Both the position numbers and the translations under genes were made by a program. The notes below the pieces were generated by a model. That model made no database searches. It was given only the letters and a program-made list of their open reading frames with translations, and had not been told where the DNA came from. A DNA stretch of 64,000 nucleotides from assembly GCA_052327205.1 (NCBI GenBank), contig CM126211.1:176948001-177012000 (forward strand), in the 5' to 3' direction. The stretch is from Somniosus microcephalus. Taxonomy: Eukaryota. Positions 35,893 through 49,107 of the stretch are shown piece by piece (position 1 is the stretch's first letter; each line of letters begins with the position of its first letter).

Positions 35893-36840
35893 AGAGAGCG
35901 CGTGCATGCGAGCGGGCGCGGAGAGAGAGAGAGCGAGGGCGGGGCGGAGAGAGAGAGAGAGAGCGAGGGCGGGGCGGAGAGAGAGAGCGCGCGAGGGGGC
36001 GGGGAGAGAGAGAGCGCGTGCGCGAGGGGGCGGGGCGCAGAGAGAGAGCGCGCGCGAGGGGGGGCCGCAGGGAGAGAGCGCGCGCGAGGGGGGGGCCGCA
36101 GGGAGAGAGCGCGCGCGCGAGGGGGGGGGCCGGAGGGAGAGAGCGCGCGCGAGGGGGGGGCCGCAGGGAGAGCGCGCGCGCGCGAGGGGGCGGGGGCGCA
36201 GGGAGAGAGCGCGCGCGAGGGGGCGGGGCCGCAGGGAGAGAGAGAGAGCGCGCGCGAGGGGGGGCGCCGCAGGGAGAGCGCGCGCGCGAGGGGGGCGCCG
36301 CAGGGAGAGCGCGCGCGCGCGAGAGGGGGCCGCAGGGAGAGCGCGCGAGGGGGCGGGGCGCAGGGAGCGCCCGCGCGCGAGGGGGCGGGGCGCAGGGAGC
36401 GCCCGCGCGCGAGGGGGCGGGGCGCAGGGAGCGCCCGCGCGCGAGGGGGCGGGGCGCAGGGAGCGCCCGCGCGCGAGGGGGCGGGGCGCAGGGAGCGCCC
36501 GCGCGCGAGGGGGCGGGGCGCAGGGAGCGCCCGCGCGCGAGGGGGCGGGGCGCAGGGAGCGCCCGCGCGCGAGGGGGCGGGGCGCAGGGAGCGCCCGCGC
36601 GCGAGGGGGCGGGGCGCAGGGAGCGCCCGCGCGCGAGGGGGCGGGGCGCAGGGAGCGCCCACGCGCGAGGGGGCGGGGCGCAGGGAGCGCCCGCGCGCGA
36701 GGGGGCGGGGCGCAGGGAGAGAGAGCACGCGAGGGGGCGGGGCGCAGGGAGAGAGCGCGCGCGAGGGGGCGGGGCGCAGGGAGAGAGAGCACGCGAGGGG
36801 GGGGCGCAGGGAGAGAGCGCGCGCGAGGGGGGGGGCCCCC
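35893..36840. repeat. GC-rich minisatellite with 11 near-perfect 32-bp units at 36361-36712
   Basis: Unit CAGGGAGCGCCCGCGCGCGAGGGGGCGGGGCG, flanked by degenerate (GA)n/(GC)n variants; no T on the + strand from 36020 to 36840. Confidence 0.95.
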
Positions 36841-39534
36841 TGTCATCGGTTGGTTCATCAGCTTCCGATGCTACTGTTTCTGGGGTAGATGCGACCTGTA
36901 CGTCGGGTTCATCCCCGTGACTCTAGGATCTGGTCAGCATGGCGTCTCACGATGCTCTCCCCAACGTCCACTGTGTACATTAGTGGGCCCTGCCGTGTGC
37001 ATATCGTTCCTGGCTGCCATTTTTCTGTTCGGTAGTCGCGGGCCAAGGCTGGTTGCCCTACATTGAAGCTCCTTGTTGGCTTCTCATGGATGTGCTGGAA
37101 TTGCTTACTCTCACCATCTCTTCGTACGTTTGGTCTGAGCAAATCCAGGCGAGATCTTAACCTTCGGTTAAAGAACATCATGGCTGGGGCCCGGTTGGTG
37201 ACTGCATGTGTCGCATTCCGGTAGGCGAACAGGAAATTGTCCACCTTGTGCTGCAGCGGAATGTTATCATTGTACATAGCCTTTATTGCCTTCTTAAAGG
37301 TTTGTACGAACCTCTCAGCCAATCCATTTGTGGCTGGACGATACGGGCGGATGTGTAATGCCTTACCCCATTCTTTTTCAAGAACCTCCGGAACTCTTCG
37401 GACACAAACTATGGTCCGTTGTCGGAGCAAATCTGTTCTGGCAAGCCATTCCTGGCAAAAATGGTCCGTAGGGCTGCAATAGTTTTCTCCGTGGTGGTGG
37501 AGGACATTTTGATGACCTCAGGCCATTTCGAGTGCGCATCCACAGCTATTAAAAACATTGAGTCCATGAATGGACCAGCAAAATCAATATGCACCCGTTG
37601 CCATGGAGATGAGGGCCACTCCCATGGGTGTAGAGGGGCCTGTGGTGGTGCATTTTGGACTTTCTGGCATCCTGAGCAGCTCTTGGTCAGGTCCTCGATT
37701 TGTTTATCGATTCCCAGCCACCACACATAAGCCCTGGCTAGGCTTTTCATTTTTACCCCTCCCAGATGACCCTCATGAAGCTCATTGAGCACTCTATCCC
37801 TTAACTTGGGTGGAATTACCACTCAGGATCCACACATCAAGGTCCCCCGGCACACTGACAGCTGTTCTCTCCTTGTCGAGAATGCTGGCAACAGTGAGTC
37901 GCCATGTGCTGGCCATCCCTTCACCGTCAAATCATATACCAGAGACAGTGTCGGGTCATTTCGGGTTTCCTTTTCGATACAAGCGTTAGTTACCGGTAGG
38001 TATTCAACTATAGTCAAATGGAATATTTCGACAGGATCCACTGCTGGTGCTTCCTCCGCAGTAGGCAGTGGCAGGCGTGATAGCCCATCAGCATTTCCAT
38101 GCTGTTTCGTGCCCTTATATTCAATCTCATAGTGGTGCGCCCCTAGAAAAAGTGACCATCTTTGTAGTCGTTGCGCAGTCATCACCGGAACGCCCTTCTT
38201 TGGATTAAAAATGAAGAGGCTGGTGATCAGTCAGCAAGGTGAATTTATGCCCGTGCAGATAGTGATTGAACTTTTTTACTCCCCACACTAGGCTGAGGGC
38301 CTCCCTGTCAATCTGGGCGTAGTTACGCTCGGCTGATGTTAGTGATCGTGACGCAAAGGCTATTGGCCTCTCTGAGCCGTCCGAGAATTTGTGCGACAGC
38401 ACCGCTCCAATGCCGTAGGGTGACGCACCACATGCCAACCGAATTGGTAATGCTGGGTTGTAATGGGCCAATACCTCTTTCGATGTGATTAGTGTTTTGC
38501 TCTTCTCGAAAGCTCGTCTACATTCGTCACTCCACTTCCATGGCACCCCAGTTTGCAGCAGGGTGTTCAGTGGGTGTAGTATTGTAGACAAATGTGGCAA
38601 GAACTTATGGTAGTAGTTTACCAGCCCGAGGAACAACCTCAGTTGTGACACATTTTCCGGTGCTGGAGCCTTGACTACTGCCTCAATCTTCTCTGCAGAC
38701 TTATGTAACCCCTCATTAGCGATAACGTGGCCACAATACGAGATCTGTTTTCTAAAAAACTCGCATTTGGGGCGGTTAGCTCGGAGCCCATATTCCTGCA
38801 ATCTAGTGAGCACCTGCTCCAGGTTGGCAAGGTGATCACTGTCATTTTCGCCCGTGACCAGGATGTCGTCCAAATAACACTGGGTCCCTGGGATCCCTTG
38901 CAGGACTTGTTCCATTGCCCTCTGCCAAATAGCCGGAGCTGATGCTACCCCGAATACCAGCCGGTTGTATTGGTAGAGACCTTTATGGGTGTTGATTGTG
39001 AGGTATTTTTTTGATGCTTCTTCTATCTCCATTTGCAGATACGCCTGGGCCAGATCAATCTTAGTGAAGCGTTTCCCTCCAGATAGCGAGGCGAAAATAT
39101 CTTCAATCCGCGGAAGTGGATATTGTACGGTGTGAAGGACCGGGTTCGCTGTTACCTTAAAGTCCCCACAGATGCGAACCTTCCTTGGTTCCCCAGGCGT
39201 GCTGCTCAACGACTTTTTCATCACAGGGACGATGGGTGTAGCCCACTCGCTCCAGTCTACCTTGGACAGTACACCTGAACGTTCCAGACTCTCCAGCTCC
39301 GCTTCGACGGCTGGGCGGATCGCATAAGGTCTGGCCTTAAAAAATTTGGGGCTTGCGTTTTCTTCAATTTTAATCGTCGCGGTCATGCCTTTTAGTGTTC
39401 CGAGTCCTTGCTGGAACACTTCTTTCACGTCAGTTAGGATCTTTGACAGTTGCCCAGGTGTGACATCGTCATCCTTTTTGTCAGCCACAGTCAGTGCCTG
39501 TATGGAATGCCAATCCAGTTGTATTTTCCGGATC
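36841..39534 (-). pseudogene. Gypsy pol: RT, RNase H, integrase (frameshifted)
   Basis: ORFs 38205.., 37823.., 37409.. and 36909..; RICGDFK, YLDD, ASPYGIGAVL, LHEGH..CSGC and HIDFAGP motifs. Confidence 0.93.
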
Positions 39535-39538
39535 CATT

Positions 39539-40110
39539 TGAGAATACCAAGGTCAAGGAAATAGAAACAAGAAACTGTGAAGGCAGCAAGAAGTAAAATA
39601 AAAAGGCTAAACTGATCTTTGGCTGCTAATATGGCTGGCGCCCACAATGTCACACCTTGCTGATAGGAACAATGTAAGGCAGCGTGCAGAAGTTATACAG
39701 ACAATAGGCGATCAGAAAACGCATTACCATGATTGCAAACGCATTACCATAATGTTTAGGTGATCGTGAACACATTACCAGGATGTTTACTTAGCTGTAA
39801 CCCATTCAGTTAAATGTGACTTCTTTATTTCAAACTGCCAGGCCAGGAAATCAAATTAAATGTATACGTGCACAGCTCAGGATTGGTGCAGGAATGTACG
39901 AGGTGTTAATGTCTTCTCAAATGCAAGTATAATAATGTAGCACACTGTATGAAAAATTGCTTGCTCTGTTGGGTTCGTCAGACTCTTGCAGGAGTCGGTG
40001 CCAACATTTCAGAGTAAGACTCCGCGGAAAATAAATCGTTTGAATTCTCCAGTTGCATTCGACTCAGTGATTACTGAACCAGACTGAGGGTAAAAGAATC
40101 CGTTCTATCA
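39539..40110 (+). promoter_or_regulatory. ERV 5' LTR
   Basis: Direct repeat of 46843-47414 with 3 mismatches by manual comparison; AATAAA at 40030-40035; U3 repeats AAACGCATTACCAT. Confidence 0.95.
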
Positions 40111-40112
40111 TT

Positions 40113-40130
40113 TGGTGTCAGAAGTGGGAT
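40113..40130 (+). other. Primer binding site, tRNA-Leu (CAA/CAG type)
   Basis: TGGTGTCAGAAGTGGGAT is the 18-nt complement of the vertebrate tRNA-Leu 3' end ATCCCACTTCTGACACCA. Confidence 0.9.
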
Positions 40131-40209
40131 CTCAACGGACAGTCACCGAGAGTTCGCGAACTAAGAGTTGAATCATCTCGGACGTGGAGAGAGGAAATGG
40201 GCCCCCGAT

Positions 40210-40215
40210 GTAAGT
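40210..40215 (+). promoter_or_regulatory. Probable ERV major splice donor
   Basis: GTAAGT consensus about 80 nt downstream of the PBS, the usual retroviral position. Confidence 0.6.
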
Positions 40216-40349
40216 AGTTTCTTGTACTACCTCGGTTTTCCTCTGATTCCGCCAGTCTGACGACGAGTCAGCCAATCGCTAACTCCTGTGTGGTGTCCCG
40301 CCGAGATCCAGGTCAGTCTGGCAAATACTGGAAGGGATAGGTGATTAGG

Positions 40350-40485
40350 TCAGTGATCGGATATCACTGAGGGTCAGTGATCGGATATCACTGAGGGTCA
40401 GTGATCGGATATCACTGAGGGTCAGTGATCGGATATCACTGAGGGTCAGTGATCGGATATCACTGAGGGTCAGTATACGTACTGA
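40350..40485 (+). repeat. Leader tandem hairpin array (5 x 24-nt period plus 1 variant)
   Basis: TCAGTGAT-CGGAT-ATCACTGA-GGG five times, then TCAGTA-TACG-TACTGA. Confidence 0.92.
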
Positions 40486-40624
40486 GGGAATAACTAGGAA
40501 CTGTGTAAACTTAGAAATAAGCACTTGTGTCAGGTAAAGAGCGTCGACCTCCTATATCACTTGGCCCGCCTAGGCTCTGAACAAGTTTAAAACGCGACTG
40601 TGTAAAGTTCACAAGGGGAGTAAG

Positions 40625-42680
40625 ATGGGCAACTGTTTAGATACCACGACTGAATCGGGTAGCGCCTTACAGACCCTTTGTGAACAACATCCTGACAAAG
40701 CAAAGCAACTTAGACAGTTGTCGGGAGGATTGAATAAGAAATTAGGAAGTGATCAATGGCCACTAGGAGGAACTAAGAATCTAGATGCCGCTAAAAAGGC
40801 TCAAGAACTAATTTGGAAAAGTAACAGGGGTACCACAGCCAAAGAACTAATTGCCCTATGGAGACAGTACTGTCAGGAACTGAAAGAAACTTCCTTGTTA
40901 GCAAGTTGGCAGGATAATGCCTTAAAATTAGGAATAGCACTTACAGGGGGAGGGGTAGTCAAATCAGTAGAGGTATTGAAAAAGGAATGCGCTCATGAGA
41001 AACGCTCAAAACAGGAGTCTGAAAAGACCACGAGCGAGCCTGGAAAGGCTGATAAGAGTGGATTACGTAATCCAATGGTTGGCCTTGCCTTGACAGAGGG
41101 AGATGGTGATGATGATTTGGACGAATGGAATCACAGGGCTCAGGTTGTTCCCACGCTCCCCCCCCCCCCCCGTATGTTAACATTTATCCCCCGGTGGCAC
41201 CCGCACCAGCTGCACAAACCCCCGCGCCGACACCAAGTATCTGCCAGTGCCGTTTCCCCGCCGCTGTCAGTCACGGTTCAGATGAACAGTCCCCCGCCGG
41301 TCCAGATGGGAGACCAACAACCGGGTCCCCAGTATACCGACCCTGTTGCCTTTTACACCCGACTCAGGACTAAGAATAATCGGCCCCCGACGACACCCTC
41401 CCCACCCCAACCCAGTCCATCAAGGTCACGAAAACGGAGAAATCAAAGGCAGATGATTCAAAGTCAGAGACTAGAGAGTCAGAGCCAGAGTACCCTCAAG
41501 GCTTTAAGGTCCTTTTTAGAGTGCCGGGACCATAGTGACATTGACAGTGGAGATTCAGGAGACGACTTGTCATCCCTGGAATCAGAATCTGATACCGAGA
41601 GACCCGCCAGACATAAACCGACACCCCGGCAGTTGCCGGTGAGACAAATGCCTAACCCTGCCTTTAACGCAAATATTCCAGTGGCCGCCGATAACCCCCG
41701 GACCATAGGTATCTTCTACCCCTGGAAACCTAACGAGATAATGGTTATCTTAGCCGGGATGCCAGATAGGAAGAAATCCCCCACCTTGTTTGTAGAATTC
41801 CTCCGGACTACTATACTCGTCTATAATGCTGAATCAAGAGACTTATGGGCGTTAGTACAGCAGATCTTGAATCCCGCCGAACATGCAAGGTTTTTGGTTA
41901 ACCTAGGCTTTGAGGACCATGCCACATTAGAGGCTCAAAACGCACAGAGTGCTGCTCGTGAACGCGCCATACTCACTGCTTTAACCACCACCCTGCAGAA
42001 ACCCATTGATATATCCAAGGGATACTAAACCACGAAAGGGCGAGGGAGCAGAGGAATTCCTAGAGAGATTCTCTGAGGTGTATCGGAGTCAGTCAGGAGA
42101 TGCTAATTACCGGAACGGAGCAAACTCGCCGCAATACTGTGCTATCCTGATAAATTGTCTACCAACCTCAGTGTCTGAAGCAATTAAGACTAACAATATG
42201 GACTGGTCAGAGAATAGTCCCAGCCAGATGGCCAGGGCAGTGAAATATTATTGGAAAGAGTAAGAGTCAGGAGAGTCAGCCCCAGGTCAAGGTCAAGACT
42301 GAGTACGTGATAAAAAAAGAGCCAAAGCCCACCCAAGATGTGATAGGGTATCAGACGGAGCCCAGTACTGCGTCCCAGGGTGGGTTGATAGACAAGGGTA
42401 CAGAGATACCAGCCATCCCAACGGACCAACCGTCCCTAATTATGGCCCACCCTACGCTCCCCCAAGACAAAATTTCGGCGATAGAGGAAGAGGAGGGAGG
42501 CAAGCAGGGTCAGATACCTGTTTTAATTGTGGCCAGCAAGGCCATTGGAGCAGGGAATGTCCCTCCCGAAGACAAGGAAGAGGGGGCCACATGCAAGGAC
42601 AACGGGGAGGTTGGCAGGGAAATCGGGGAGGAGGAAGATATACAGACTTCTCCCAGAATAATCCGTTTCCCCAGTACTGA
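40625..42680 (+). pseudogene. gag: ERV gag (frameshifted)
   Basis: MGNC myristoylation start; PPPPY late domain in a shifted frame at ~41160; MHR-like KPRKGEGAEEFLERF; NC knuckle CFNCGQQGHWSREC at 42519-42560; TGA at 42678-42680. Confidence 0.88.
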
Positions 42681-45600
42681 CTAGCCAACCTCGTGGCGAA
42701 CGGGTTCCAGTCGGACAAGGAGCCCGTTCTATCCCTGCTGATTGAAGGGAGCAGACATACCTTTCTGGTAGACACCGGAGCTATGTCATCTGTCCGATCA
42801 GAGCTCAATCTCCCTAAATCCGGGGAGACACAAAGCCTGTCCGGATTCCAAGGACAAGTGTGCCAGTACCCGATATCAGAACCAGTTGAAGTAGCATTTC
42901 AAAATGAGTCTGTGAAACACCAATTCGTGATCACAAATGGGCTGGATTGCAATCTCATGGCCAGAGACCGGTTATGTGCATTTCAACTAAGACTTGAGTG
43001 TGGGAACGAAGGAATAACTGTAAAACCATGGGCCCCTAAAAGACAATGTTACGTCTCTATCGCCCCACAATGGTGGACTCTGAACTTAAAAGATGAACCC
43101 CCATCTCATGTAACCCTAGCTTATGATCGAAGTGGGAAAGATAAGGAGTTGGAGAATTTTTACCAAGCTTATGAAGGGACTGAGTGGGATGTTGTTCTCC
43201 GAGCCATAGTTACGGGACCGGAGGGGAAAGCAGAATATGTTGAGGTTCCCTCGGAATTGTGGAAGCAACCCCTAACTGTAGCCCCACACATCACCCGGGA
43301 AGTGAACTCCCCCTGCCGTGCGGAAGATCTGGGACCCATGGTAAAACAGGCAGTTGAACAAGCTAACCCAGATGACCGGCGGGAGCAGGCCGTCAGGCGG
43401 TCGAGCTATCCTGTTATACCAAGAGCCAAAGGTAGTCTTGACACAGTTGCACCACCACGTTGGGAATGAGGTACCGGAATACGTCAATCCGCAAGTGTGG
43501 GCAGAAGACCCCACACAGGTAGGATGCGTTAAAATAACTCCAGCACGCCTTCTTCGCCTTGCCACTGGAACCGGCAAGCCAGTACCTCTTTGCTTTTACT
43601 TATAATGGACAACAATATACGTGGACCCGACTGCCGCAAGGCTTTGTAAACTCTCCAACATTATTCTCTAGGTGCCTACAAGGACAGTTGCAGACTTTGA
43701 CCTTGAAACATGGTTCTGCTCTGGTCCAGTACGTGGACGATTTGCTAATAGCTAGCCCTGACGAACAAAGTAACCGGGAAGACACCGCCCAGTTGCTTAA
43801 TCACCTATTCTCACTCGGGTACGTAGTCTCTCAATCAAAGGTACTAGTGGCCCAACAGAAAGTTAAATTCCTCGGCTTCATGCTCTCAGCAACCGAGCGG
43901 AGTCTAGAGAGAAGCAGGATTGAGCCAATCTGTCAGTTCCCCGTACCCCGTAGTGCAAAACAAGTGAGGCAATGGATGGGGATGGTAAACTACTGTAGAC
44001 AATGGATACCCAACATCGCTCTAGAAACCAAACGACTAACACCATACACCAGTATGGAGGGCGAGTTCCAGCTAGACCCTGTCGCCATAAGAGCGTTTGA
44101 AAACCTAAAAGAAGCATTGTCACAAGCCCCAGCACTGGGGAGACCCCTGTATGACAGGCCCTTCCAGCTATACTGCACTATCCTCACTGATTGTTCGACT
44201 GCTGTCCTAACGCAAAAACATGGGGACAAGCATAGGCCGGTGGCTTACTACTCCTCGAAGTTAGATCCGGTAGCGCTAGGGCATCCCGTATGCACCCAGA
44301 TTCTGACCGCCATCTATAATAGCCTACAATCGGCTGCCAACCTAACTTTGCAACAAGATATTACTGTATACAGTTTGCACTCGGTAACTGCACTATTAGG
44401 CCAATTACAAACTCAGCACCTCACTATGGCCCGACAAAATAAGTACGAGATATACCTGTTGAATAATCCTAAACTGCAATTTAAGCATTGTACTACTATC
44501 AACCCAGCATGTTTTCCTCACAGAACCACCCCTCGAACAAACAGACCCAGGACATGATTGTCTATTTTTAATCAAGGAAGATACCTCCATCAGGGAGGAT
44601 CTATCTGATGCCCCAATGCAGAGTCCTGACACAACCATGTATGTAGATGGAAGTGCGTCCGTCAGTCCCCTTGGGAAAAGACTTTCTGGATATGCAATCG
44701 TAGATCAGGACAGTAATACTTTGGAGTCTGCCGCCTTTGAACTTCCGTATTCCGCCCAACAAGCAGAACTGTTCGCATTAATACGAGCTTGTATCTTAGG
44801 GAAGGACTTAAAAGGTTAACGTTTATACAGACTCGAGATATGCCTTCGGAGTGGTTCATGATTTCAGACAATTATGGAAAAACAGAGGGTTCCTAACCTC
44901 TGCAGGAACACAGATATCCCATCAGAAATTAGTATCGGATTTGCTACAAGCCCTCATGCTACCAAAACAGATCTCCGTGATAAAGTGCTCCGCACACACA
45001 GCAGGACAAACCCCTGTAGATATAGGGAATAGATGCGCTGACCAGGGAGCAAGGGAAGCGTCCCAGGAACGACGAGTGGTTGTGCCTAGAATGATGAGCC
45101 AGACTAAAAGCTCAAATAAAAGCAAGTCTCCCTCGGAAAAGCCAATGCCAACCATCCAAGACGTCATTAAGTTACAGGAGGACGCTCCTGACCGTGATAG
45201 GGGACTGTGGAAACAGCTCGGTTGTACATATGATTGTGTGTCTAAATTATGGGTCACCCCTGCCGAGCAAACTTGTATGTCAGATGAGCTAGCATTATGG
45301 GTTATTGAATGTATACACTTTGCAACTCATTGTGGTGCCAGAGCAACTAGTGACACGTTATTAGCTACATGGTGGCATCCTAGATTACAAGCTCTGGCTC
45401 AAGGTATTAGCAGTCGCTGCCTCATTTGTCAGCAGCATAACCCGGGAAAAGGCATACCTTGTGAAACGGGTAAGACGCCGTTACCCACGGGTCCCTTTGA
45501 GACCCTCCAGATGGACTAAATTGAATTAGAAAGGTGTCAGTGTTATAAATATGTACTGGTTATTGTTGATGTATTTAGTAAGTAGATTGAGGCCTACCCG

Positions 45601-46299
45601 ACTACAGATAACAAAGCCTCCACTGTTGTAAAAGTTTTAAGGAGAGAAATTATTCCAAGGTACGGAATTCCAAACCGATTAAGTTCAGACAACGGCCCTC
45701 ACTTCGTGGGTCTGGTAAACAAGGAGTTCTGCACTCAAATGGGCATCCAACAGCAGCTACATTGTGCCTACAGGCCACAGGCCGCCGGACTGGTCGAGCG
45801 GGCTAATCAGACCTTGAAAAATAAACTTGCCAAATTACAGGCCGAGACGGGAACTACATGGCTCAAACTACTCCCCGTGGCCTTGTTCCAAATACGCACT
45901 ACCCCGGCTGGTGCAGCAAGATTAAGCCCTGCTGAAATCATATATGGCAGACCTCTCAAAACCCCGTGGAACCAGGAAGTCCCAAAGACTGTCCACTTTC
46001 ACCACATGACGGCAGAAATGACTAACTATATTTTGTCGTTAACCAGGGCATTGAAAAGTTTGCACTCCCGGGTACGCGCTGCTTACATCGACCTCCCTCC
46101 TATAGTCAGTCCGTCCCAGGTCGAGCCCGGAGCGTACGTATTAATCAAGAATTGGACGCGAAAAGGATTGGAACCTCGTTGGGAAGGACCCTATCAAGTC
46201 CTACTCACCACCCCAACTGCTGCCAAAGTAGAGGGAAAGAGTGCTTGGGTTCACCTCCACCACTGTAAAATTGTCAGTAATGCTATGCCTGAAACTTAA
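42681..46299 (+). pseudogene. pol: ERV pro-pol: protease, 2H-like domain, RT (N-terminal deletion), RNase H, integrase
   Basis: FLVDTGA; LPQGF..SP and YVDDLL; YVDGS, SAQQAEL, YTDSRY; H..TH/CLIC, SDNGPHF, VERAN, PRWEGPY. Stops at 45517 and 45583 and several frameshifts. Confidence 0.93.
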
Positions 46300-46346
46300 A
46301 GAACGCTAACCTCTCTTGCTTCCAAGAAATCTCTCCCTAAACAGAC

Positions 46347-46805
46347 ATGCAGACGTCGCTGTGGATCCTCTCTATCAGTGTCCTGATCACCCTTGGAATA
46401 ACTCAACAGCCCAGAATGAGAACATGCCGGCGGAACCAACCCAAGCGGGTACACCACCTATGCCACGAAGACGTGCTTCGGTGCAATGATGATAACCGAG
46501 GCGGGTTCGGGAAATGGAACGTGATCAACTGGGACACCTACATTGGGCTTATTAGACAGCCCCACCGCTCGCTAATGCTGAGATACATACACAGAGGAAC
46601 ATTGCCATGCCATTGGACCAAGTGTAAATTTGATTACGTCTGTCGACGCCAGGTGACCAAGTCTGTTACTGCAGGACCATGCAACAGAACTACCGATACC
46701 AAAGGACAAAGCTGTTATCCGAAGTCCAACCAGGAAAGGAAAAGAAATGGGCTGCCCCCTTTGAAAGAATTTGATCGACTAAATAAAATAGACGTAACCG
46801 AATAA
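46347..46805 (+). CDS. 152-aa signal-peptide, Cys-rich ORF in the env position (accessory protein or internally deleted env)
   Basis: ATG start, hydrophobic N-terminus LWILSISVLITLGI, 8 Cys, one NRT sequon, no TM segment. Upstream CTAAC, pyrimidine tract and CAG. Confidence 0.6.
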   Translation: MQTSLWILSISVLITLGITQQPRMRTCRRNQPKRVHHLCHEDVLRCNDDNRGGFGKWNVINWDTYIGLIRQPHRSLMLRYIHRGTLPCHWTKCKFDYVCRRQVTKSVTAGPCNRTTDTKGQSCYPKSNQERKRNGLPPLKEFDRLNKIDVTE

Positions 46806-46830
46806 CGGTTGGTTATCATAGAATGATGAT

Positions 46831-46842
46831 AAAAGGAGGGAA
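46831..46842 (+). other. Polypurine tract
   Basis: AAAAGGAGGGAA immediately before the TG of the 3' LTR. Confidence 0.9.
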
Positions 46843-47414
46843 TGAGAATACCAAGGTCAAGGAAATAGAAACAAGAAACTGTGAAGGCAGCAAGAAGTAA
46901 AATAAAAAGGCTAAACTGATCTTTGGCTGCTAATATGGCTGGCGCCCACAATGTCACACCTTGCTGATAGGAACAGTGTAAGGCAGCGTGCAGAAGTTAT
47001 ACAGACAATAGGCGATCAGAAAACGCATTACCATGATTGCAAACGCATTACCATAATGTTTAGGTGATCGTGAACACATTACCAGGATGTTTACTTAGCT
47101 GTAACCCATTCAGTTAAATGTGACTTCTTTATTTCAAACTGCCAGGCCAGGAAATCAAATTAAATGTATACGTGCACAGCTCAGGATTGGTGCAGGAATG
47201 TACGAGGTGTTAATGTCTTCTCAAATGCAAGTATAATAATGTAGCACACTGTATGAAAAATTGCTTGCTCTGTTGGGTTCCTCAGACTCTTGCAGGAGTC
47301 GGTGCCAACATTTCAGAGTAAGACTCCGCGGAAAATAAATCGTTTGAATTCTCCAGTTGCATTCGACTCAGTGATTACTGAACCAGACTGAGGGTAAAAG
47401 AATCCGTTCTACCA
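46843..47414 (+). promoter_or_regulatory. ERV 3' LTR
   Basis: 572-bp copy of the 5' LTR; AATAAA at 47334-47339. Confidence 0.95.
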
Positions 47415-47418
47415 CATT

Positions 47419-48530
47419 CATGTCCCAGTAATGGTGATCCTCCATCTTGCAATACATACAGGTCTAGTTTTGGTGTTTCCTTACCGTTATATATAACGGT
47501 CACCCTTATTTTTCCTTTGGGGTAGACTTTTTGCCCCGTGTACGTCTTCAAAATAATTTTTGTGTCTCTCAAGGGTATGTGTGAGAATAGCCGCTCGTAG
47601 TCCCGTCGGTTTATGACTGTTAGGGCTGATCCTGTGTCCAATTCCATCTTTACCTGGACTCCTGCTATCTTGAGAGTGACCCAAATGGTTCGGTGATCCT
47701 CCGTTGTGATCACATTATGTAGTTTCAGACAACTCAGTTCCCTGCTTTCGGAGTCGTTATCACTCTTTTGTTCGTCTGAACTATTCTCCGTCATCCTATG
47801 TACCTTCTTGTACTTTTCTTTGGTAGGTTTCTTATTGCTGGTTTTCTTTCCCAACCTGCAGACTCGTGCTATGTGTCCTACTTTTCCCACACTGTCTGCA
47901 CACTTTGTCTTTGAACCAGCAATCATTCTGGTCCTGTGCTGTTCTGCCGCAGCGATAGCACTTCGCTGTTCTATATGACATTTTGTTTGTGCCATATTCT
48001 TGCGGTCTCTGTTGTATCTCTGCAGCGCCCCGTGCTGCTGCTTCATATGATACCACAATGCTGAAAGCCTTTTCCAGCGTAAGGTCCTTTTCAGATAAAA
48101 GCCGTTTCTGGGTTCCTTCACTTTGAAGCCCACACACAAACTTGTCCCTTAAGGTATCTGCCAGTCCCGCTCCAAACTGGCAGTGTTTCGATAGTTTGCG
48201 CAGTTCTGTTAAATAATTAGCATTGCTTTCATCCTTATGCTGGTTCCGTTTGTGAAACTTGAATCTTTCTGCTATCATCAGCGGTGTGGGGTTTAAATGT
48301 TCCTGTAGTATCGTTACTATGTCTTCAAAACACTTTTCCATTGGCTTCGTTGGGGCTACTAGATTTTGTAATAAACCATACGTCTTTGCACCCATTAAAT
48401 TTAACAATACCGACGCTTTCTTGTCATCTGACACCTCATTTGCCTTGCAGTATACCTCTATTCGTTCGACATATGTAGTCCAATCTTCAACTTCATTGTC
48501 AAATGCGGTGATACTGCCACTCTTCGGCAT
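47419..48530 (-). pseudogene. Gypsy gag and protease (frameshifted)
   Basis: ORFs 47832..48530 and 47375..48139; MELDTGS and LKTYTG motifs. Confidence 0.9.
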
Positions 48531-49107
48531 TTTGGGTGTGGTTTAAAATGGCGTCTCCCAATGGCTTAAAATGGCGTCTCCCGCGCTTTCCTTCCGCCAA
48601 CGCTGCTCCCGGCGGTTCTCATGGCAATGGCGGCGCCCTGTAGGTTTCGCGCGCTTCTCCTGCGCTGCTGCCAACGCCGCTCTCGGCGGTCCTCGTGGCA
48701 ATGGCGGCGCCTCGCGGGTTTCTGCACGTCTCTCTCTCCCTCTCTTCGACGCTGCTCGGCCCCTGAACACCGGCTGCGCCCTGTGCACTCTGCCCTCTCT
48801 CTCCCCCGTCGACGCTGCTCAGCCCTTTGCTGTGCCGCTCGGTCGGGCTCTAGCCCGCCGCTGTCCAGGAAGGGTCTGCGCACTACCTGTTGCCAGCCCG
48901 TTTTGCTGGACCACCTCGACTGGAAAGCCAAGCCTGGCTCACGACAGCCTCCCCCGCAATTCTCGAGTCTCTGCTGGATAACTGGGCAGTTGCCCGTGGT
49001 CGCCACCCAAGTCTCTGGCCTTGACCTCCAATCCACTGATCTCCAGGAACGAATCCCCGGGAGGTGATGCAGAGTTGCAGGTAGGTTCGAACTTGCCTTG
49101 TTGCCAA

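Follow-up and report, generated by a model that had tools for sequence, protein, structure and literature searches.

The window, as we call the whole 64,000-nucleotide stretch analysed here, contains a provirus whose two LTRs differ at 3 of 572 sites, which marks it as a young insertion. The features of this provirus are as follows.

39535..39538, + strand: left copy of the target-site duplication CATT (right copy at 47415-47418)
39539..40110, + strand: 5′ LTR, 572 nt, identical to the 3′ LTR at 569 of 572 positions
40113..40130, + strand: primer-binding site beginning TGG, which we take to be of the tRNA-Leu type
40197..40209, + strand: leader ATG, 13 nt upstream of the donor, used for frame comparison across the predicted splice
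40210..40215, + strand: predicted splice donor GTAAGT (GTGAGT in many siblings)
40625..42680, + strand: gag, with five frameshifts in the window copy and a zinc knuckle near its end
42681..46299, + strand: pro-pol, comprising protease, RT, RNase H and an integrase with an MLV-type C terminus
46306..46344, + strand: predicted env branch point, pyrimidine tract and acceptor AG
46347..46763, + strand: env codons 1-139, comprising a predicted signal peptide (about 1-20), a six-cysteine module (27-99) and part of a linker
46764..46805, + strand: env codons 614-626 (end of the cytoplasmic tail) and the stop codon
46831..46842, + strand: polypurine tract (PPT)
46843..47414, + strand: 3′ LTR

In the window copy, pro-pol is damaged by three frameshifts, two stop codons and a 317-nt deletion. 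The provirus sits within the protease-RT region of an opposite-strand LTR retrotransposon, presumably Ty3/Gypsy-like (38205-39538 and 47415-48542, − strand), and splits its reading frame. Its leader includes about five units of a 25-nt tandem repeat (40345-40480), which is present in many more units in copy L110, and window positions 35917-36916 are occupied by a GC-rich tandem array of about 23 units of 32 nt.

The integrase stop codon TAA (46297-46299) and the PPT are separated by 531 nt, in agreement with the gap of about 530 nt given in a preliminary description of this DNA. The uninterrupted 152-amino-acid ORF placed there by the same description is found at 46347-46805 (+ strand) and has the eight cysteines counted in it (residues 27, 39, 46, 88, 93, 99, 112 and 123). 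A single hydrophobic stretch lies at the N terminus, and both hydropathy and a comparable hydrophobic N terminus in homologues agree with the proposed signal peptide. As described, the ORF has no fusion peptide, CX6CC motif or transmembrane (TM) segment, and a Pfam search with it returned no family match. The NRT sequon at residue 113 and the basic RKR at 131-133 are likewise present, but neither is conserved in the family: NRT is found in 21 of 49 near-full-length env copies, and RKR reads RER in all four other copies that carry the identical deletion. The proposed splice-like signals also lie where they had been placed (CTAAC at 46306, CAG at 46342-46344 and GTAAGT at 40210). The caution that the intactness of so short an ORF is weak evidence of selection is well founded, because 456 nt would be free of lesions with a probability of 0.77 at the family pol rate and 0.41 at the window copy's own rate. 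Thus, for inherited env coding sequence, the open frame is not beyond chance.

Origin and predicted expression of the ORF

A sibling DNA search of the 6.4-Gb genome (49 matches from the best 40 of 304 candidates) reveals the source of the ORF. In many siblings the spacing that measures 543 nt in the window is about 1,980 nt, and their env frame spans 626 amino acids. In a pairwise comparison with this sibling env, residues 1-139 of the window ORF match at 96%, and residues 140-152 correspond to residues 614-626 with 13 of 13 identical. The two parts are joined by an in-frame deletion of 1,422 nt with its junction at 46763/46764 and 1 nt of microhomology. The leading proposal of the preliminary description, a separate accessory gene in place of env, thus fails, since the entire ORF aligns to both ends of the sibling env. 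Its alternative, an env N terminus joined to its tail by deletion, is correct. Siblings with a full env do exist, as the sceptical part of that description had anticipated, but the deletion is in frame and present in five insertions rather than out of frame and specific to one copy. That a dedicated gene unrelated to env occupies this position has next to no probability, as nothing speaks for it beyond the look of a single copy.

The ORF therefore very probably consists of the first 139 and last 13 codons of the family's 626-codon env, fused in frame, and in the window it is likely a neutrally decaying remnant. There is no GT-AG placement at its junction, which together with the 1-nt microhomology suggests that a template jump during reverse transcription would have made the 1,422-nt deletion. 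The envelope-less element would then have copied itself inside cells or with a helper, and the predicted spliced env mRNA would carry the fused ORF and give rise to a small secreted protein.

A splice origin of the env deletions was considered and rejected, as GT-AG boundaries are found at none of the junctions tested. The same result sets the ORF apart from accessory proteins of the Rec, Np9 or Rem type (the last presumably also a spliced product), which arise from a second GT-AG splice within env.

The sibling env has the hallmarks of a gamma-type Env, namely an immunosuppressive-domain (ISD)-like stretch and heptad repeats in TM. Its TM matches TLV_coat (E = 4e-8) and an Ebola-like HR1-HR2 (E = 4e-7), and the solved structures that it matches in a PDB search are filovirus GP2, syncytins and MLV TM. 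A membrane anchor is present as a hydrophobic segment starting at residues 552-564. The third cysteine of CX6CC is missing: of 49 full copies, 48 have L, I or F after CX6C, and the remaining copy is gapped at this place. An AlphaFold model of the full env has a pLDDT of 33 with two confident helices, and the anchor helix is among the confident parts. CXnC variants of gamma-type Env are known from anamniote ERVs, according to the portions consulted of a preprint (10.1101/2021.11.23.469661). As far as those portions and excerpts of a related paper (PMC9967133) describe them, these Envs resemble the sibling env in having an ISD-like stretch, heptad repeats, a TM anchor and CX6C without the third cysteine. 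Unlike the Envs as described there, the sibling env has an extra N-terminal six-cysteine module of about 135 amino acids with its own basic cleavage site. As a side observation, the sibling TM (P0001 residues 427-577) is closest to filovirus GP2 (E = 1e-18), with mammalian retroviral TM at E = 1e-7 or weaker.

Comparison among siblings also bears on how env is predicted to be expressed. Of 39 scorable proviruses (43 non-duplicates were examined, 4 of them without the anchor), 37 have a donor of the form GTRAGT (GTAAGT or GTGAGT). In those 37 the predicted joint would put the leader ATG into the env frame, an agreement that has one-in-three odds by chance and comes from related copies. The window copy lacks 18 nt (six codons) that siblings have between the acceptor and the env ATG, and the frame is preserved. 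Judged from these alignments, the splice sites of the window are probably those normally used for env in this family, and the leader ATG at 40197 is likely the true env start. Spliced env mRNA has been reported for a zebrafish ERV (excerpt of PMC8672886). On unspliced RNA the leader ATG opens a six-codon upstream ORF (40197-40217), and with splicing it would become the in-frame env start; in siblings, this predicted start adds basic residues before the hydrophobic stretch.

The available RNA runs come from a species that has the family in its genome, and family reads are present in them; the four joints listed all lie elsewhere. Neither a 40209-46345 joint nor a joint at the deletion was found in 750 and 989 reads (24% and 31% of two RNA runs), a search in which the 18-nt gap at the acceptor handicaps junction reads derived from siblings. 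At position 46498 the sibling letter is carried by 73 of 73 and 24 of 24 reads, and at 46468 by 54 of 54 and 21 of 21. Contigs of two further RNA runs likewise carry sibling letters at the private sites of the window. Because all of these reads and contigs have sibling letters, the animals from which RNA was sequenced may not carry the window insertion. RNA depth over the module is raised in one run (20-48, on one strand, versus 0-20 elsewhere) but not in the other.

Spread of deleted copies and a recurrent deletion boundary

The 1,422-nt deletion junction occurs five times in the genome, each time with different flanks. The target duplications at these copies are 4 bp long and mutually different; four of the five are perfect, and the fifth has one mismatch. 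Their LTR pairs show 2-8 differences per about 572 sites. No gag or pol lesion is common to all five copies, and gag-pol of the window copy has 10 small lesions in addition to the 317-nt deletion. The different flanks and duplications, the lack of a common gag-pol lesion and the lesions of the window copy together indicate that the deletion predates the insertions and that the window copy is now dead. One deletion thus occupies several independent sites, which defines an env-deleted amplifying lineage of five copies. The absence of a common gag-pol lesion fits intracellular retrotransposition and helper-mediated infection alike.

The five copies do not form one clade on the 5′ env tree, and this scatter implies recombination. 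In a separate observation, one 1,810-nt pol deletion is paired with four different env deletions (in copies L095, L096, L106, L113 and L115), which suggests frequent recombination between defective lineages. Some copies multiplied by segmental duplication. On contig C42 (L161-L171), a single insertion whose env frame is stopped at codon 100 was spread in this way, its 3′ flank being common to all 11 copies fetched, and a similar group is found on C35.

Env-degraded ERV lineages that spread without their own envelope, such as mouse IAP, have been termed 'superspreaders' (excerpts of PMC10536682). As portrayed in those excerpts, they share with the present family the loss of an internal part of env and a later spread to several loci. 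Here, by contrast, few copies are seen per deleted lineage (2-10), and one boundary is used repeatedly, which leaves a signal peptide and module that can still be translated.

This boundary emerges from a survey of copies through anchors outside env, which is without query bias. The anchors were an acceptor-site pattern (144 matches, 100 surveyed) and a PPT pattern (92 matches). Among the 100 surveyed copies, 65 have paired anchors, of which 42 are full length, 22 short and 1 longer. The 22 short and the 35 unpaired copies were read individually, with env deletions scored at a length of at least 150 nt. Left out of the counts were L019, an insertion misread as a deletion, and segmental duplicates with common flanks (the C42 and C35 groups and pairs on C2, C4, C6 and C40). 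Also left out was L074, which has no 5′ anchor and is given as an exception: its deletion runs from integrase to env nt 200 and takes the acceptor with it.

Large env deletions are present in 32 of the 100 surveyed copies. Thirty of them start at env nt 415-488 and the others at 919 and 1602, so that none starts before nt 415. Copies detected only by their PPT add deletion starts at env nt 506 and 566. The deletions have 14 distinct junctions, which reduce to 10 conservatively independent events when possibly nested ones are merged. Given the deletion lengths, the probability that none of 10 events starts before nt 415 is 3.7e-5, and it becomes 2.5e-4 or 2.4e-3 if the boundary is set at Cys123 or Cys99 instead. 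Counting one event per subfamily background gives 0.012, or 0.07 with the Cys99 boundary. Each of the three main branches of the 5′ env tree includes env-deleted copies, and large pol deletions, in contrast to the env deletion starts, are scattered.

The six-cysteine module ahead of SU

The region kept by these deletions also occurs in ERV envs of other sharks. A whole-library protein search found six relatives at 30-42% identity, all of them longer env-like proteins; the named env homologues are from skate, catshark and sawshark. Six cysteines, one tryptophan and a few other residues are invariant among the module relatives. Of the five distinct relatives that were checked, four place a canonical R-X-K/R-R site after the module and ahead of a conserved N-x-F stretch, and the basic sites of homologues at the equivalent place read RQKR, RVRR, RCKR or RRKR. 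Of 49 full copies in the shark family itself, 28 have KKRKR or KRRKR at codons 153-157 and 16 have KRHER there. In a skate env the signal peptide is followed directly by the basic site, and the module is absent. Between subfamilies, pN/pS values calculated from non-independent pairs are 0.46 for codons 1-123, 0.41 for SU and 0.76 for the linker, the most variable part. From this organization we infer an Env in three parts. The first of these would be set free as a soluble protein, and deleted proviruses would make this part directly.

An AlphaFold model of the module from six sequences has a pLDDT of 54 and six strands. An immunoglobulin-like or other fold is not claimed, since the best VIA-align score (Z = 5.6) is at background, none reaches 8 or above, and the likeness is that of a generic beta-sandwich. 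An ESM Atlas search gave no usable match. None of 51 candidates of 49-179 amino acids is a stand-alone module protein, which is weak evidence. No second module-bearing family was found in the genome among the best 150 of 255 candidates, which are 35-45% identical to the query and almost all copies of this family. In the catshark annotation, pieces of the module appear in predicted host proteins (P0033 and P0037, an LDLRAD3 isoform and a NACHT-LRR protein), possibly as exonised ERV sequence or through gene-model error.

The foamy virus leader peptide, nairovirus GP38 and ebolavirus sGP are N-terminal pieces of glycoprotein precursors or soluble N-terminal forms, and they provide a working analogy for the predicted three-part Env precursor. 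Unlike in those precursors, the short form here results from genomic deletion rather than from editing or splicing. Pfam, ESM Atlas and VIA-align searches returned no sequence or fold link between the module and any of the three. In the literature searched, which included few subscription journals and the bioRxiv preprint minus the env alignments of its supplement, we found no description of the six-cysteine module or of the recurrent boundary.

Possible causes of the boundary and the fate of the window copy

The recurrent cut between the six-cysteine module and SU may reflect selection on the spreading element to lose SU-TM and keep the 5′ 415 nt, a proposition we regard as about evenly balanced. 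If selection is at work, the secreted module itself is slightly favoured as the thing retained. Signal peptide and module would then form a soluble piece, furin-released from intact Env, which envelope-less lineages are selected to keep making for receptor masking, entry help or immune modulation. This account has a substantial but minority share of the probability. The 30 of 32 deletion starts at nt 415-488, with none earlier, argue for it, as do the probabilities for 10 independent events (3.7e-5, and 2.4e-3 with the Cys99 boundary), although a single event per subfamily background weakens the value to 0.012, or to 0.07 for a boundary at Cys99. Also consistent with a retained protein are deletion starts that bracket the basic site at codons 153-157, the conservation of a basic site and six invariant cysteines in homologues, the skate env without the module, the pN/pS of 0.46 in codons 1-123, and the finding that no retrotransposed deleted lineage has a disabling module lesion in common. 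Against it, L074 has dispensed with the start of env, and the spread of copies with common pol deletions indicates that products can come from other copies in trans, so that an element would be under less selection to encode a secreted product in cis. The private substitutions common to deleted lineages (two nonsynonymous to one synonymous) are too few for a test.

A purely mechanical cause has nearly the same share of the probability: the linker at env nt 415-506 would be a hot spot for template switching or slippage, with nothing selected beyond env loss. Indeed, 5′ sites are reused by several junctions (449/450, 473/476 and 488), some of which look nested, and small indels, a C run and an insertion site all fall in the linker, where the protein varies most (pN/pS 0.76). 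The breakpoints, however, have no common motif and only 0-2 nt of microhomology when compared with a reference copy, and local folding is ordinary (z of 0.1 to 1.4 in windows over nt 301-600). Windows at nt 361-480 pair unremarkably with the commonest 3′ breakpoints at nt 1780-1880, whereas nt 481-540 pairs well with nt 1621-1680. It is somewhat less probable, by our estimate, that env nt 1-415 is instead kept for a cis signal in genomic RNA (export, packaging or splice balance), with the protein as a passenger. Such elements are known in the residual env of IAP elements, and the retention of this region by trans-complemented pol-deleted copies would be explained, as would a copy deleted from pol up to the acceptor that retains the AG and the module. 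Codons 41-80 have low synonymous divergence (pS of 0.019 and 0.010), but pS falls just as low at codons 161-180, 421-440 and 501-520, and overall pS in codons 1-123 (0.162) exceeds that of SU (0.111) and the TM ectodomain (0.084). In addition, no stable fold and no Rfam match are found in 5′ env. Mixed causes account for the remaining probability.

In its fullest form, the proposal of a selected protein holds that a soluble six-cysteine protein, released by furin, precedes SU in the Envs of a group of shark ERVs, and that envelope-less lineages repeatedly trimmed env to it because it aids their spread, so that an accessory gene was born by convergent deletion. We consider this somewhat improbable as a whole. 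Env loss in ERVs is usually taken as plain decay, whereas here about ten natural deletions mark one boundary. This boundary points to an undescribed N-terminal module of the cartilaginous-fish gamma-type Env, whose role becomes testable. If the module is a secreted protein needed by the element, it would show a route by which a retroviral accessory gene can come from env; should a cis signal or a hot spot be the cause, the shape of env remnants is still accounted for.

The window copy itself is ordinary. Soluble truncated Envs with demonstrated activity, FeLIX and Refrex-1, are known from defective proviruses and hold the receptor-binding region of SU, and enFeLV includes a group of truncated Envs of 140-273 amino acids (excerpts of PMC11019853 and PMC9245640). 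Receptor-binding domains in soluble form can affect entry in trans (excerpt of PMC9967133). The window ORF is alike in overall design to FeLIX and Refrex-1 as the former excerpts describe them, with a signal peptide (here predicted from hydropathy) and N-terminal env, no TM and a defective provirus. It differs in that its piece ends before the furin-type site and the SU-like part, the part homologous to skate SU, and in that no host selection is seen. The LTR, donor and acceptor of the window provirus are intact, as a host-domesticated restriction factor of this kind would allow. Domestication of this locus is nevertheless very improbable, as the insertion is young (3 of 572 LTR differences), the intactness of its ORF is expected by chance, and the window's private alleles are in no RNA read, the sequenced animals perhaps being without the insertion.

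Lesions across the family agree with this assessment. In the 32 env-deleted proviruses, the module (env codons 1-138) has 0.54 small lesions per kb (7 in 12,974 nt) and pol has 0.58 (63 in 107,821 nt); the gag value of 1.16 per kb is inflated by homopolymer and alignment noise. Singleton changes in the module number 35 nonsynonymous to 9 synonymous, against 320:94 sites. Pooled over copies, lesion density therefore equals that of pol and the singleton ratio is neutral, rather than reflecting a frame kept open by the host. The private changes G41E and P51R of the window copy hit residues that are invariant in 49 of 49 near-full-length copies. Lesion rates, the neutral singleton ratio, chance-level intactness and these two changes make host co-option of the window locus unlikely, as read from its sequence. 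An ATG-initiated frame of at least 138 codons is still open in 25 of the 32 independent deleted copies, and the pooled neutral decay may leave room for one co-opted copy somewhere.
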